From NCBI RefSeq assembly GCF_003334255.1, contig NZ_QOWU01000111.1: DNA of 4,153 nucleotides; one strand, given 5' to 3'. Position numbers and translations under genes: made by a program. Positions 1-4,153 of the stretch are shown piece by piece. How positions within the stretch are numbered: position 1 is the stretch's first letter; each line of letters opens with the position of its first letter. This stretch comes from Escherichia coli (GTDB lineage: Bacteria; Pseudomonadota; Gammaproteobacteria; Enterobacterales; Enterobacteriaceae). Under the pieces are notes generated by a model. The model saw nothing but the letters and a program-made list of their open reading frames with translations. It had not been told where the DNA came from and made no database searches.

Positions 1-114
1 ACGCGAGGCATCGTCTTAACGAGGCACCGAGGCGTCGCATTCTTCAGATGGTTCAACCCTTAAGTTAGCGCTTATGGGTTCAAGTCCCCGATGGCGGTCC
101 ATTATCTGCATCAT

Positions 115-191
115 GCGTTGTTAGCTCAGCCGGACAGAGCAATTGCCTTCTAAGCAATCGGTCACTGGTTCGAATCCAGTACAGCGCGCCA
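115..191 (+). tRNA. tRNA-Arg, anticodon TCT (decodes AGA), 77 nt with encoded CCA
   Basis: Hand-folded cloverleaf. Acceptor 115-121 GCGTTGT pairs with 181-187 ACAGCGC (one G-U pair). D stem GCTC 124-127 / GAGC 137-140. Anticodon stem ATTGC 142-146 / GCAAT 154-158 with 7-nt loop CTTCTAA, anticodon TCT at 149-151. 5-nt variable loop. T stem ACTGG 164-168 / CCAGT 176-180 with loop TTCGAAT. Discriminator G188, CCA 189-191. Resembles the argO/argN-type tRNAs carried in lambdoid late regions (from memory, not searched). Confidence 0.85.
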
Positions 192-298
192 TATTCATTC
201 TTCCAGATTCCTTTCGGCAGAGCCTTATACTGAAATATACCTGGCTCAGGATATTGTTGAAAATATTATATGTTTGTCAAAAATAAAAGTTCTGTTAA

Positions 299-655
299 GT
301 GTTGATTGAGTGTTTGTTATACGGTCTAATGGTTTTTTCAGCATTAAATATTTATCATTCATATGGTGTGGGTAGAGTGAATATTGATGAGGCGTCGGGG
401 TGTTTCATCCTTAGGCAGCGTATTGATATAGTCAATGCAGAACGAGCAAAGGCCTTCAGCCGTTTGACAGTTTTGTTCTGTACTCCTGATCGTCTTTCGG
501 GAAGAGACGTTATTATTCTGAATAGTGATGCTATACAGAGGGTTTGCGATGAGTTCATGGTGGCTAATTCAGAATTATTTGCTCTTGTTCAGGAGTACAA
601 CAGAATAGCCAGGACCTGTGGTATGGATGAACTTCGGATTACTCATCTGGGGTAG
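299..655 (+). CDS. hypothetical protein (118 codons as drawn; true start uncertain, candidates GTG299, ATG329, GTG377)
   Basis: Open frame from the six-frame track ending at TAG 653-655. No convincing Shine-Dalgarno in front of any candidate start. 6 of 11 Arg codons are AGA/AGG (3 AGA, 3 AGG), directly beside a tRNA-Arg(TCT). AT-rich promoter-like stretch 250-298 upstream. No domain recognised by eye. Confidence 0.3.
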   Translation: MLIECLLYGLMVFSALNIYHSYGVGRVNIDEASGCFILRQRIDIVNAERAKAFSRLTVLFCTPDRLSGRDVIILNSDAIQRVCDEFMVANSELFALVQEYNRIARTCGMDELRITHLG

Positions 656-735
656 ATACATATCTGGATTATCACCGGTTACGGTAAAAAGTGATTGCTT
701 ACTGTTTTTGTGAATGGCATTGCAGCAGCCGGATA

Positions 736-822
736 ATGTCAGTGCTGGCTGACGGTGTGCTGGTGGCGGGTGTGGTGGTTGCTGCTTTCCCGTTGCTGAA
801 AAAGAAAACGCCAGACTGTTAG
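736..822 (+). CDS. candidate small hydrophobic peptide, 28 aa (MSVLADGVLVAGVVVAAFPLLKKKTPDC); frame is open back to GTG691, which would give 43 aa
   Basis: ATG 736, TAG 820-822. One uninterrupted hydrophobic stretch of about 17 residues followed by KKK, typical of small single-pass membrane peptides (type I toxin-like or leader-like). GC-rich, E. coli-like codon choice. Only a weak SD (GGAT/CCGGA) upstream. Below the ORF-track length cut-off, so found by reading. Confidence 0.2.
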   Translation: MSVLADGVLVAGVVVAAFPLLKKKTPDC

Positions 823-1047
823 CCGGGTATCAGTTAGCGGGAGAAATTTTTAAATACTTCACAATTCAGGCGGTTGACTGTTGTCTGGTTTGCGGGGAGT
901 TTGTTAAAAGAAACTGGCATGGTGAATCCCCCTGTGCGGAGGGGCAATCAGCGAGTAGGTATATGGGATAATCGCGGATTCAGGTGCTGGTACTGAATTC
1001 ACCGGGAGGCACCCGGCACCATGCAATGGCACATAGCGCCACTCTCC

Positions 1048-1083
1048 AGCCCCTCTCCGGAGGGGCTGTTTATATTGATTTTG
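1048..1083 (+). terminator. Rho-independent terminator candidate, plus-strand orientation
   Basis: Perfect 8-bp GC-rich stem AGCCCCTC (1048-1055) / GAGGGGCT (1060-1067) with 4-nt loop TCCG, followed by GTTTATATTGATTTTG. On the minus strand the same hairpin is followed by GGAGAGTGG (no U tract), so it looks unidirectional. Confidence 0.5.
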
Positions 1084-1102
1084 TCAGATGTGAGTAAACT
1101 CC

Positions 1103-1438
1103 TTATGGACTTTGTTGTTTTAGCCCATAAGGACATATTTGCAGAGTGCAACGGTTATTAAAGCATTCATTCAATACGTTATCTGTATTTGTAGGGCATT
1201 CCTGGCTGTTTTTGATTAAATTCCAGAATGTTTTATTGAATGGTACTACGTTGTAAATGGTTACAGGCAGCACTTTGTTATTGAGCATGATGCCTGTGTG
1301 AGTCAGTGTAAATATACTTTCAGGAGGTAAGAAAGCATCCGATTGATACCAGATTATTAATTTTATTTTACTCCATATGACTGAAAAAGATATTCCGCAT
1401 GATGGCTGGATAACTGTATCAATCACAATCCACTTCAT
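1103..1438 (-). CDS. hypothetical protein, 111 aa, AT-rich moron-like gene convergent with the late operon
   Basis: Only long ORF in a roughly 30-35% GC block (hand count of subsegments) where the plus strand is littered with stops in all frames. SD AAGGA about 6-7 nt upstream of the ATG at 1438 (minus-strand reading AAGGAAACTAA-ATG). Cys-containing C-terminal segment ([26 protein letters not shown]). No family recognised. Confidence 0.4.
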
Positions 1439-1478
1439 TTAGTTTCCTTGTTTATGCCTTGCTGGTGATGTTCTGAAA

Positions 1479-1505
1479 AGTATAAATGATATTTTTGATT
1501 GTAAA
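1479..1505 (-). promoter_or_regulatory. possible sigma70 promoter for the minus-strand 111-aa ORF
   Basis: On the minus strand: -35-like TTTACA (plus coords 1500-1505), 15-nt spacer, -10-like TATACT (plus coords 1479-1484), about 40 nt upstream of the ATG at 1438. AT-rich context makes chance matches likely and the spacer is short. Confidence 0.2.
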
Positions 1506-1683
1506 CCATAGATCAGAATTATTTTTCTGATGTTGTTTATTGTTTATTTAAATGCAGGGTGGTTTATATCTCGTCTTGTAGTTTATCCATGCATATCTGC
1601 TTGATGATGAGGTTTTTAATTAAGGTATGGTTTTGTGTTTTTTCTGTATTACATGTCAGGTATTTTAAAGAATCATTTTTCAG

Positions 1684-1887
1684 ATGGTGGAAAGAACCAT
1701 GGCATTTAAACACTATGATGTTGTCAGGGCGGCGTCGCCGTCAGATCTTGCGGAAAAGCTGACACATAAACTGAAAGAGGGCTGGCAGCCGTTTGGTAGT
1801 CCGGTGGCCATAACCCCTTATACCCTGATGCAGGCGATTGCAGCAGAAGGTGATGTGGTGGTCAGTGGTGCAACTGAGCCGGAGTGA
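1684..1887 (+). CDS. DUF1737-like small phage protein (67 aa from ATG1684; alternative start ATG1699 preceded by GGTGGAAAG)
   Basis: Sequence MAFKHYDVVRAASPSDLAEKL...GWQPFGSPV resembles, from memory, the DUF1737 domain that occurs as small standalone prophage proteins and as the N-terminus of nanS-p-type esterases found between Q/stx and S in lambdoid prophages. Stop TGA 1885-1887. Confidence 0.6.
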   Translation: MVERTMAFKHYDVVRAASPSDLAEKLTHKLKEGWQPFGSPVAITPYTLMQAIAAEGDVVVSGATEPE

Positions 1888-2042
1888 TACTACGTCATCG
1901 TACTGGCCCGGCATTCCAGGCCATAAAAGACGGTCTGGCAGTGGGACTAAATGCACTGACGCTGACGGATATTACCAAAAATGCAACGTATGGCGTTGAG
2001 ATAGAAAGTCTGGTGCTGGAGATAAATGCACCGGCATCATCA
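1878..2042 (+). pseudogene. possible 3' remnant of a larger gene (frame shifted relative to the DUF1737 ORF)
   Basis: A different frame is open from 1878 to TAA 2040-2042 and translates to a protein-like tail (...[50 protein letters not shown]) with no ATG start (only GTG1884). Together with the upstream DUF1737 ORF this looks like an internally deleted multi-domain gene. Could alternatively be a small overlapping ORF or chance. Confidence 0.3.
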
Positions 2043-2130
2043 TAAAAAGTGAGCCAGTCAAATGGAAGGTATCGTTAAACTCACCGGTAGTGTCAGTGGG
2101 TCGTCTGAGACGCCTGCATGAGTTATCAGA

Positions 2131-2160
2131 GCCATCAGTACTTAACTGGTGGCTTTTTTA
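2131..2160 (+). terminator. Rho-independent terminator immediately upstream of the holin gene
   Basis: 8-bp stem GCCATCAG (2131-2138) / CTGGTGGC (2146-2153) with one G-U pair, 7-nt loop TACTTAA, followed by TTTTTT (2154-2159). Confidence 0.6.
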
Positions 2161-2194
2161 TTGTTGTCAGCTTCCGGATAACGGGAGACGGGGT

Positions 2195-2410
2195 ATGTAC
2201 CAGATGGAAAAAATCACAACAGGTGTGTCATACACCACGTCAGCGGTGGGAACGGGCTACTGGTTCCTGCAGTTGCTGGACAGGGTTTCCCCGTCTCAGT
2301 GGGCGGCAATAGGCGTGCTGGGGAGTCTGCTGTTTGGGCTGCTGACATATCTGACTAACCTGTATTTCAAAATCAAAGAGGACCGGCGTAAGGCGGCGCG
2401 GGGAGAGTAA
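2195..2410 (+). CDS. S: class II holin (phage 21 S21-like pinholin), 71 aa, probable dual start Met1/Met4
   Basis: Protein [71 protein letters not shown] is near-identical in the C-terminal two thirds to phage 21 S as I recall it. Two TMDs (a Gly/Ala/Ser/Thr-rich TMD1 and a hydrophobic TMD2) with a charged C-tail. SD GGAGA before ATG2195, second in-frame ATG at 2204. The ORF-track entry 2090..2410 is the same frame, but its extension runs through the terminator hairpin. Confidence 0.9.
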
Positions 2411-2414
2411 AGTG

Positions 2415-3305
2415 ATGAATAAAAAATATGAACTGGTTGTTAAGGGGATAAATAATTACGGGGATAAGGTTACTGTTACTGTGAAGCCGGAAGGTGACGG
2501 GCAAGCGTCGCTGTTGTTGCCAGATGTGGCGATTAGTCTTGACCGTACTGAAGGTGCCACGCTGGAGTTTTACGAAGCTGAGGCGAAAAAGCAGGCGAAG
2601 CAGTTTTTCATGGATGTTGCTGCCGGGTTATGTGAAGGGGATGGTCCGTTGCCGGAAAAGCGCCCCGTAATTTTAGAGGCGCAGGATGTGTTGATAACCT
2701 ACAAAGGAAAGCTACCGGGAAGAATTACTTGTTCTCTGAAGATGCCGCCGTCAACACTGCGGTCAGAAAAAGATGATGTTGAATCACGTATTGAAAAACT
2801 GGAGAGCTACGTCGTTGAGCTGAATAAGAAATGGTCGATATTGGTGCCTTCTGGCGATGAAAAGCAGTTTGCTGCGTTTGACGATTATTGTCGGAAAGTG
2901 ATGAGCAGAAATCTCGCAGAGTGTTTCAGTATTCATAATGATAATTTCAGTGACCCGGAATGGGAGTGTAACCGGCCATCCTTTGTTGTATCCGGTGATG
3001 CTGGGAAAATAACCATCTCAGAAAATGGGAAAGTAACACCTCCATCGCACCAGCACAGTGAGGAGCTCATTGAATTTGCCATTGATTACCTGAAGAACAA
3101 TAAAAAGCAGGGGCTGATGAAGCGCGTTGGCCGTTGCATGGGATATCTGCAGGTAGCTGCTGAGATTGAAGCGCTGGCCAGTGGTGCTGATAAGGATGCA
3201 ATTGTGCGGGAGGCTCTTCTTCGTGATTTTAATACTCCACCCTTTAAAAAAGTGCCGGCTTACTGGCTTCATCCGGGGCTGACTTATCTTAAAGTGCGTA
3301 TTTAG
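2415..3305 (+). CDS. hypothetical protein, 296 aa, inserted between holin and endolysin (function unknown)
   Basis: Long clean ORF with ATG at 2415 (GTG at 2412 also in frame). SD GGGAGAG at 2401-2407 sits 7 nt upstream and overlaps the last codons of S, whose TAA stop (2408-2410) lies between SD and start, i.e. translational coupling. No signal peptide or TM segment and no catalytic motif recognisable by eye. Stop TAG 3303-3305. Confidence 0.7.
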   Translation: MNKKYELVVKGINNYGDKVTVTVKPEGDGQASLLLPDVAISLDRTEGATLEFYEAEAKKQAKQFFMDVAAGLCEGDGPLPEKRPVILEAQDVLITYKGKLPGRITCSLKMPPSTLRSEKDDVESRIEKLESYVVELNKKWSILVPSGDEKQFAAFDDYCRKVMSRNLAECFSIHNDNFSDPEWECNRPSFVVSGDAGKITISENGKVTPPSHQHSEELIEFAIDYLKNNKKQGLMKRVGRCMGYLQVAAEIEALASGADKDAIVREALLRDFNTPPFKKVPAYWLHPGLTYLKVRI

Positions 3306-3341
3306 TGGGCCAGGGACAGCGGCTGAATATTTAATATATCC

Positions 3342-3875
3342 ATGAACACCAAAATCAAATACGGCCTGTCGGCTGCCGTTCTGGCGCTGATTGCCGCTGG
3401 TGCGCCTGCGCCTGACATTCTCGACCAGTTTCTGGATGAAAAGGAAGGCAAGCACACCACAGCATACCGTGATGGTGCGGGTATCTGGACCATCTGCCGA
3501 GGTGCCATCATGGTGGATGGTAAGCCTGTGATTCCTGGCATGAAGCTGTCGAAGGAAAAATGCGACTGGGTTAACACTATCGAACGGGATAAGGCGCTGG
3601 CGTGGGTGGAGAAAAACATCAGAGTGCCACTGACCGAACCCCAGAAAGCGGGGATCGCGTCATTCTGTCCGTACAACATTGGTCCCGGTAAGTGTTTCCC
3701 GTCGACGTTTTACAGACGAATTAATGCTGGTGATCGAAAAGGTGCCTGCGAAGCGATTCGCTGGTGGATTAAGGACGGTGGCAGAGACTGCCGTATTCGT
3801 TCAAACAACTGTTACGGTCAAGTATCCCGTCGTGACCAGGAGAGCGCGCTGGCGTGCTGGGGTATCGACAGATAA
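3342..3875 (+). CDS. R: SAR endolysin (phage 21 R21-type lysozyme, T4-lysozyme fold), 177 aa
   Basis: N-terminal weakly hydrophobic Gly/Ala-rich signal-anchor-release segment (GLSAAVLALIAAGAPAP). Catalytic triad spacing E35-x8-D44-x5-T50 (EGKHTTAYRDGAGIWT) seen directly. Overall very close to lambdoid/Stx-phage R proteins as I recall them. No strong SD upstream (36-nt gap after the previous stop). Confidence 0.92.
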   Translation: MNTKIKYGLSAAVLALIAAGAPAPDILDQFLDEKEGKHTTAYRDGAGIWTICRGAIMVDGKPVIPGMKLSKEKCDWVNTIERDKALAWVEKNIRVPLTEPQKAGIASFCPYNIGPGKCFPSTFYRRINAGDRKGACEAIRWWIKDGGRDCRIRSNNCYGQVSRRDQESALACWGIDR

Positions 3876-3965
3876 GCAGAATATTTTGCTGAAAAATGAG
3901 GAATGGCCACGCGGGCGGATAACACGAAATCCTGCGAACTGGCGAAACGTAAGTGAATAAAAGTA

Positions 3966-4008
3966 AAAACCCCGTTTGTTGGCACCAAGCGAGGTTTTGT
4001 GTTTCTGA
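3966..4008 (+). terminator. weak candidate stem-loop/terminator downstream of R
   Basis: AAAACCCCG (3966-3974) can pair with CGAGGTTTT (3990-3998) with one mismatch around a 15-nt loop, followed by GTGTTTCTG. The stem is A/U-rich at its base and the loop is long, so this is marginal. Confidence 0.2.
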
Positions 4009-4031
4009 CCTTGAGTAAGGCAAGGGAGAAC

Positions 4032-4153
4032 ATGGCGAAGTATAAACGAATTCTGTTGAGGTTGACTATGAAAAATGGCCTTGAACTGAAAGCGCCTGTA
4101 ACTGATGACATCAGCAGAGCACTGGCTTTTGCCATTAAGTGGGTGGCGGTCGG
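4032..4153 (+). CDS. hypothetical protein, 5' partial (runs off window end); occupies the slot between R and the expected spanin genes
   Basis: ATG4032 preceded by purine-rich SD AGGGAGA (4023-4029). Frame open to the window end (MAKYKRILLRLTMKNGLELKAPVTDDISRALAFAIKWVAV...). N-terminus is not TM-like, so not an Rz i-spanin. In Stx-type prophages an antirepressor-like gene sits between R and Rz (recollection), which may be what this is. Confidence 0.45.
   Translation, partial: MAKYKRILLRLTMKNGLELKAPVTDDISRALAFAIKWVAV

Follow-up and report, generated by a model that had tools for sequence, protein, structure and literature searches.

The DNA between positions 1699 and 2045 of the window, by which we mean the whole analyzed stretch of 4,153 nucleotides from Escherichia coli (contig NZ_QOWU01000111.1), is very probably a dead nanS-p gene: an inert remnant that has kept the N-terminal domain and the genomic slot of its family and has lost the catalytic and C-terminal features (rough probability 85%). 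The nanS-p genes of Stx and other lambdoid prophages encode a 9-O-acetyl-N-acetylneuraminate (sialate) esterase with the domain architecture DUF1737-SASA-DUF6645. Since the window lacks SASA, carries its tail out of frame and contains an early TGA, the locus cannot encode an esterase, and lysogens with this allele (CFT073, S88, JJ1886, 042) obtain no 9-O-acetyl-sialate esterase activity from the prophage carrying it. We infer that the two leftover ORFs are without function. What we see is the decay of an accessory gene of a prophage, and its biological weight is small; the kind of finding is already known, and the RefSeq pipeline already flags the pseudogene. Its modest interest lies in the mechanism of the deletion (a short imperfect repeat), in the remnants that figure as database 'families' and in a possibly useful liberated capsid-binding domain.

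Homology to nanS-p

We used the intact 617-aa NanS-p protein (yjhS of phage PPyecE_EH1910) as tblastn query against the window. Residues 1–74 aligned to 1699–1920 in frame +1 with 91% identity (E 4e-38) and residues 572–617 to 1905–2042 in frame +3 with 87% identity (E 5e-20); residues 75–571 gave no match in the window. The two ends of NanS-p lie in different frames, as the preliminary description of this DNA had anticipated when it proposed a collapsed nanS-p-type gene consisting of an N-terminal domain and an out-of-frame C-terminal stub. The window lacks the SASA/SGNH catalytic domain with its GQSN block, and it has no DUF6645 / lectin-like C-terminal domain that shares the reading frame of the N-terminus. 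In the phrog_143 profile (634 positions) the ORF of 67 aa matched positions 1–58 and the tail positions 582–632, and in phage records the two halves matched the 5' and 3' ends of genes annotated as 9-O-acetyl-N-acetylneuraminate deacetylase or SASA esterase. An Rfam scan gave no match within 1684–2130.

Counted from its first ATG, the ORF at 1684–1887 encodes 67 aa and covers the entire Pfam DUF1737 model (PF08410, 1–53/53, E 5.3e-17), which bears out its earlier assignment as DUF1737-like. RefSeq and all intact homologues begin at the second ATG, position 1699, giving a protein of 62 aa that reads MAFKHYDVV...ATEPE, and S88-type alleles do not conserve the sequence around the upstream in-frame ATG 1684; ATG 1699 is the probable true start. 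The extent first given for the locus, 1684–2042, needs adjustment at both ends: the ORF from 1684 is present, the start used by RefSeq and the homologues is 1699, and the stop codon ends at 2045. RefSeq treats 1699–1884 as pseudogenic ('DUF1737 domain-containing protein, incomplete, missing C-terminus').

In frame +3 an open stretch of 55 codons begins at 1878 and reaches its last sense base at 2042, followed by a stop at 2043–2045. No ATG is present in this frame within 1878–2042; the earliest possible start is GTG 1884. An open, protein-like frame of about 55 codons lacking ATG had been noted before, and it was recovered here with its homology to NanS-p. By itself an open frame of this length is unremarkable; the decisive point is the homology to NanS-p. 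RefSeq annotates 1884–2045, beginning with the GTG that overlaps the TGA of the first ORF, as a 53-aa 'hypothetical protein' (WP_001309421.1). The structure of the NanS-p C-terminal domain (PDB 6YP6) spans residues 421–613 of the intact protein, of which the tail keeps just the final part.

Compared with NanS-p of 933W, gp84 of phi24B and yjhS of PPyecE_EH1910 (PHROG 143), the locus occupies the same slot, after the tRNA and cargo region and directly upstream of terminator and S. The first 68 codons are 91–100% identical and the last 46 codons together with the 3' flank 87–97% identical, whereas the window is devoid of codons ~69–571 (SASA and most of DUF6645), has the tail out of frame and shows TGA at codon 63.

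Table 1. Features of the decayed nanS-p locus and its 3' neighborhood in the window.
Feature	Position	Strand	Source
nanS-p N-terminal remnant, 62 codons and TGA, complete DUF1737	1699..1887	+	Pfam, tblastn, RefSeq
Secondary nonsense mutation, TGA for TGG (Trp63)	1885..1887	+	base-by-base comparison with U14A
Frame +1 codons 64–68 of nanS-p (YYVIV), past the premature stop	1888..1902	+	tblastn and nucleotide alignments
Deletion junction, right-hand copy of the imperfect direct repeat CTGGCC[G/C]GGCA[A/T]TCCA	1903..1918	+	U14A alignments
Out-of-frame C-terminal remnant, NanS-p residues 572–617 and original stop	1905..2045	+	tblastn, phrog_143
Terminator-like hairpin and T-run	2128..2163 (hairpin 2128–2156)	+	consensus scan
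Holin gene S (class II holin)	2195..2410	+	RefSeq annotation of near-identical G1/2 locus

Breakpoints and probable mechanism of the deletion

E. coli U14A carries an intact gene of 1854 bp in the same context (IraM-like gene upstream, S downstream) with a left flank of 99% identity, which identifies the short form as derived. By Pfam the intact protein contains DUF1737 at residues 3–50, SASA at 66–262 and DUF6645 at 467–577, and the NanS esterase structure (PDB 3PT5) spans its residues 59–379. We determined the breakpoints by left- and right-anchored alignments of the window to the U14A gene. Identity extends from the ATG to gene nt 210 and again from gene nt 1712 to the stop codon, and the hexamer CTGGCC (1903–1908) is common to both flanks of the deletion. 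The deletion comprises 1507 bp (3n+1), and because of this length the reading frame changes from +1 to +3. The internal deletion of the esterase domain suggested in the preliminary description is confirmed by this comparison, and the alignment to the intact homologous prophage region defines its endpoints. On the left, the breakpoint falls inside the codons for LAGQSN (GQSN motif), in this family the SGNH/SASA block I motif with the nucleophile serine. Given the limits of the Pfam domains, 3PT5 and 6YP6 relative to the breakpoints, all catalytic sequence and nearly all of DUF6645 have been lost.

In the intact gene the repeat is present as CTGGCCGGGCAATCCA at nt 205–220 and as CTGGCCCGGCATTCCA at nt 1712–1727, the two copies being identical at 14 of 16 positions. 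The window retains the right-hand version, which places the crossover in the first hexamer. As to the mechanism, we infer that the two imperfect 16-nt direct repeats were joined, probably by illegitimate/short-homology recombination or by replication slippage. The deletion eliminated SASA along with the remainder of codons ~69–571 and shifted the last 46 codons out of frame. Lacking esterase activity, the remnant is probably no more than a passenger between the cargo region and S, within the late operon of a prophage of lambda-like type, and recombination among lambdoid prophages has probably spread it to many E. coli lineages.

The premature stop codon

The TGA that terminates the first ORF lies 16 nt upstream of the junction. 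Homology in frame +1 continues for five codons past it and the intact gene has TGG at this position; the stop is therefore not a product of the frameshift. The collapsed nanS-p gene proposed earlier stands with respect to deletion and frameshift, and has to be corrected with respect to the stop of the first ORF, which goes back to a separate TGG>TGA change at codon 63. Among the IMG/VR sequences sampled, TGG was present at this codon in 114/114 intact alleles. Alleles with the exact junction (56 in IMG/VR) fall into about 48 with TGA and the 62-aa ORF and about 8 with TGG (E. coli S88 type), and in the latter the frameshifted ORF crosses the junction, reaches TAA 1924–1926 and measures 75 aa. 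If it had no TGA, the ORF of the window would extend to the same TAA. Since the same junction occurs with TGG in S88-type alleles and all intact alleles have TGG, the deletion came first and the nonsense change followed later in one sub-lineage. In that sub-lineage, which includes the window, the TGA now closes the frame right behind DUF1737. The assumption that every deleted allele has TGA was considered and proved wrong. A synthetic 70-nt junction query with TGG had no exact match in 5426 genomes; the S88 allele has TGG and differs from this query at two other bases.

Recoding would be another way to read the arrangement, with a programmed -1 frameshift or stop read-through joining the frames into a fusion of DUF1737 and the C-terminal tail. 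The GTG of the tail overlaps the TGA (GTGA, 1884–1887) and a -1 shift does lead from frame +1 to frame +3, but direct reading of the sequence revealed no slippery heptamer of the type X XXY YYZ in 1860–1925. The tail moreover corresponds to the last 46 of ~200 residues of the 6YP6 domain and is unlikely to fold, the TGA is altogether missing in the S88-type allele, and a 3n+1 deletion of an intact gene fully accounts for the arrangement. We regard such a fusion as extremely improbable; with no slippery site and a tail that would be a non-folding fragment, we discarded both programmed frameshifting and a translational coupling of the first ORF to the tail, in favor of decay by deletion.

Distribution of the deleted allele and other deletions

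With a threshold of at least 95.7% identity over 70 nt, a search of 5426 complete E. coli genomes detected the junction in 837, among them CFT073, S88, APEC O1, JJ1886 and 042. About 15% of the complete genomes thus have the allele, for the most part those of extraintestinal pathogenic lineages. The vB_EcoS series contributes four phage records with the junction, and IMG/VR another 65 contigs. The occurrence in complete genomes and phage records rules out an assembly artefact. RefSeq places a pseudogene mark on the locus in G1/2, CFT073, 042, S88 and JJ1886. Stand-alone DUF1737 genes of about 65 aa as the common intact form had been named in the preliminary description as the opposing reading; the short form is indeed common among these genomes, yet it shows C-terminal homology and a defined junction.

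The junction is found on two 5' haplotypes and beside several downstream modules, and such a mixture of haplotypes and flanks is typical of the mosaicism of lambdoid prophages. The same 1507-bp deletion could, however, also have arisen several times independently at the imperfect repeat rather than once with subsequent recombinational spread. The repeat exists in intact genes of several subfamilies, the two haplotypes carrying the junction (TGA-type and S88/TGG-type) are divergent with 11 differences in 1719–1776, and the downstream modules beside it differ (loci L018, L032, L046, L066). One of ~66 deleted alleles (L142, IMG/VR contig 3300029085_000005) reads CTGGCCGGGCATTCCAGG at its positions 373–393, a hybrid junction that would suit a crossover in the second identity block. 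It is only one base off the common junction, though, and could be a point mutation; L142 represents either a single-base substitution (C>G) or an independent deletion with second-block crossover. In every other copy, from 65 IMG/VR loci and the 837 genomes, the crossover interval is identical, and the mosaic recombination of lambdoid prophages accounts equally well for the mixed flanks. A repeated origin of this deletion is therefore considered unlikely, and we favor a single deletion with recombinational spread.

Two other loci have the same gene in the same slot but a different junction. In E. coli Z1323CEC0008 (locus L008) the deletion extends from gene nt ~166 to 1681 and in O157:H7 SS52 (locus L009) from gene nt 93 to 1118, leaving 31 codons. 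These deletions cut into DUF1737 or just behind it, and RefSeq lists both loci as DUF1737 and DUF6645 pseudogene fragments. L008, which shows 86% identity across the region, was considered as an ancient copy of the window's deletion and rejected, since the alignment revealed a different junction. The L008 and SS52 deletions are independent events, and from their different junctions it follows that internal collapse of nanS-p is recurrent.

Databases pass on leftover ORFs of this kind as though each were a protein family. Small families built from the remnants are phrog_2036 (67 aa), phrog_12088 and phrog_6393, besides the RefSeq protein WP_001309421.1. It is likely that many E. coli entries counted as single-domain DUF1737 proteins are remnants of this type, and their share bears on the claim that most DUF1737 proteins are single-domain (bioRxiv 10.64898/2026.04.10.717836).

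Possible function of the N-terminal fragment

In phi24B the DUF1737 domain of gp84 has been described in a 2026 preprint as a capsid-decorating hexamer at the central hexons of the T=9 head, apparently cleaved off the esterase after about residue 54–57, and residues 2–57 of gp84 were modeled on the capsid (bioRxiv 10.64898/2026.04.10.717836). For the question whether the DUF1737 capsid-binding domain functions independently of its esterase, the locus is a natural experiment. Besides destroying the three-domain esterase, the deletion and the later nonsense change might have left a functional stand-alone DUF1737 protein of 62 aa, made from the late operon and acting as a capsid-decorating hexamer, for instance at hexon centres, or in some other role; if true, the use of this protein would explain the persistence of the allele. 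The entire Pfam domain is present as in gp84, its frame is unbroken in 56/56 deleted alleles examined, and ribosome-binding context and start are the native ones of the intact gene. The protein ends just 5–8 residues beyond the reported phi24B cleavage point, close to the processed fragment, and most DUF1737 proteins in databases are single-domain (2528 of ~3000; bioRxiv 10.64898/2026.04.10.717836).

Several observations argue against a retained function. The fragment is only ~59–61% identical to the 933W/phi24B-type domain, and the head genes of the prophage are lambda-like, one of them coding for a decoration protein; judged from these genes, the head is not the T=9 podovirus type of phi24B. 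Other independent nanS-p deletions do not spare DUF1737, as seen for the few codons left in O157 SS52, and chance would be expected to leave an ORF of 62 codons open for a short evolutionary period. Variants in the DUF1737 part that are private to deleted alleles are mostly nonsynonymous (7 nonsynonymous, 2 synonymous) and affect conserved positions: they include W29G, D7A, H5Y and S13P/A, all at positions invariant in 86 intact alleles. For the same part of the intact alleles we counted 15 nonsynonymous and 17 synonymous variants, with a neutral expectation of ~3.2:1. The contrast of 7:2 versus 15:17 is underpowered and not significant (Fisher p = 0.14); its direction suggests relaxed constraint in the deleted alleles. 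Taken together, we consider a working stand-alone domain quite improbable and keep to the reading of an inert remnant.

Genomic neighborhood

The terminator-like hairpin begins ~85 nt past the stop of the tail and upstream of S, in good agreement with the distance of about 90 bp given in the preliminary description. Its sequence is the native 3' flank of nanS-p, also following the intact nanS-p genes of Stx2 phage 86 and PPyecE_EH1910 (96–97% identity). The downstream holin gene S identifies this part of the late operon as the slot of nanS-p, and in this position from the cargo region to S the neighbors are the same as those of the intact genes in U14A and PPyecE_EH1910.

Over positions 76–4153 the window shares 99.98% identity with a prophage of lambda-like type in E. 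coli G1/2 (NZ_CP060083.1). The G1/2 prophage adjoins potAB and encodes a lambda-type terminase, portal, S49 peptidase, head decoration protein and major capsid protein as well as a lambda-type long tail. Positions 1–75 of the window have no match to G1/2, and 76–101 correspond to the 3' portion of a tRNA-Arg present in full in G1/2; region 1–101 looks like a recombination breakpoint within a prophage tRNA gene. The next tRNA-Arg(tct) at 115–191 is the only tRNA called there by ARAGORN and Rfam.

An ORF of 97 aa on the plus strand (362–655, ATG 362) gave a near-full-length match to phrog_2873 (E 1e-62); at the near-identical locus of G1/2 RefSeq leaves it unannotated. A full-length match to the Rfam sRNA STnc100 (RF02076; 132 bits compared to a gathering score of 47) was detected in the cargo region, at 888–1077 on the plus strand, with the tRNAs on one side and the IraM-like gene on the other. 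The latter is an ORF of 111 aa on the minus strand (1103–1438), annotated at identical loci as anti-adapter protein IraM (WP_000871291.1). IraM is a host-regulation cargo gene and occupies the slot of the toxin genes in Stx phages.

Between holin gene S and the lysozyme gene R lies an ORF of 297 aa (2412–3305, plus strand) that matches phrog_1085 over the full length (296 positions, E 2e-188); the first 113 aa of the ORF correspond to the YdfR family (phrog_406). RefSeq annotates only its N-terminal part, as a truncated YdfR pseudogene; going by its sequence match, the long form of 297 aa may well exist as a protein that is under-annotated. The lysozyme gene R is located at 3342–3875 and is not directly followed by Rz in the remainder of the window (3876–4153). 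In G1/2 small hypothetical ORFs separate R from the gene annotated as 'lysis protein', the first of them starting at window position 4032.
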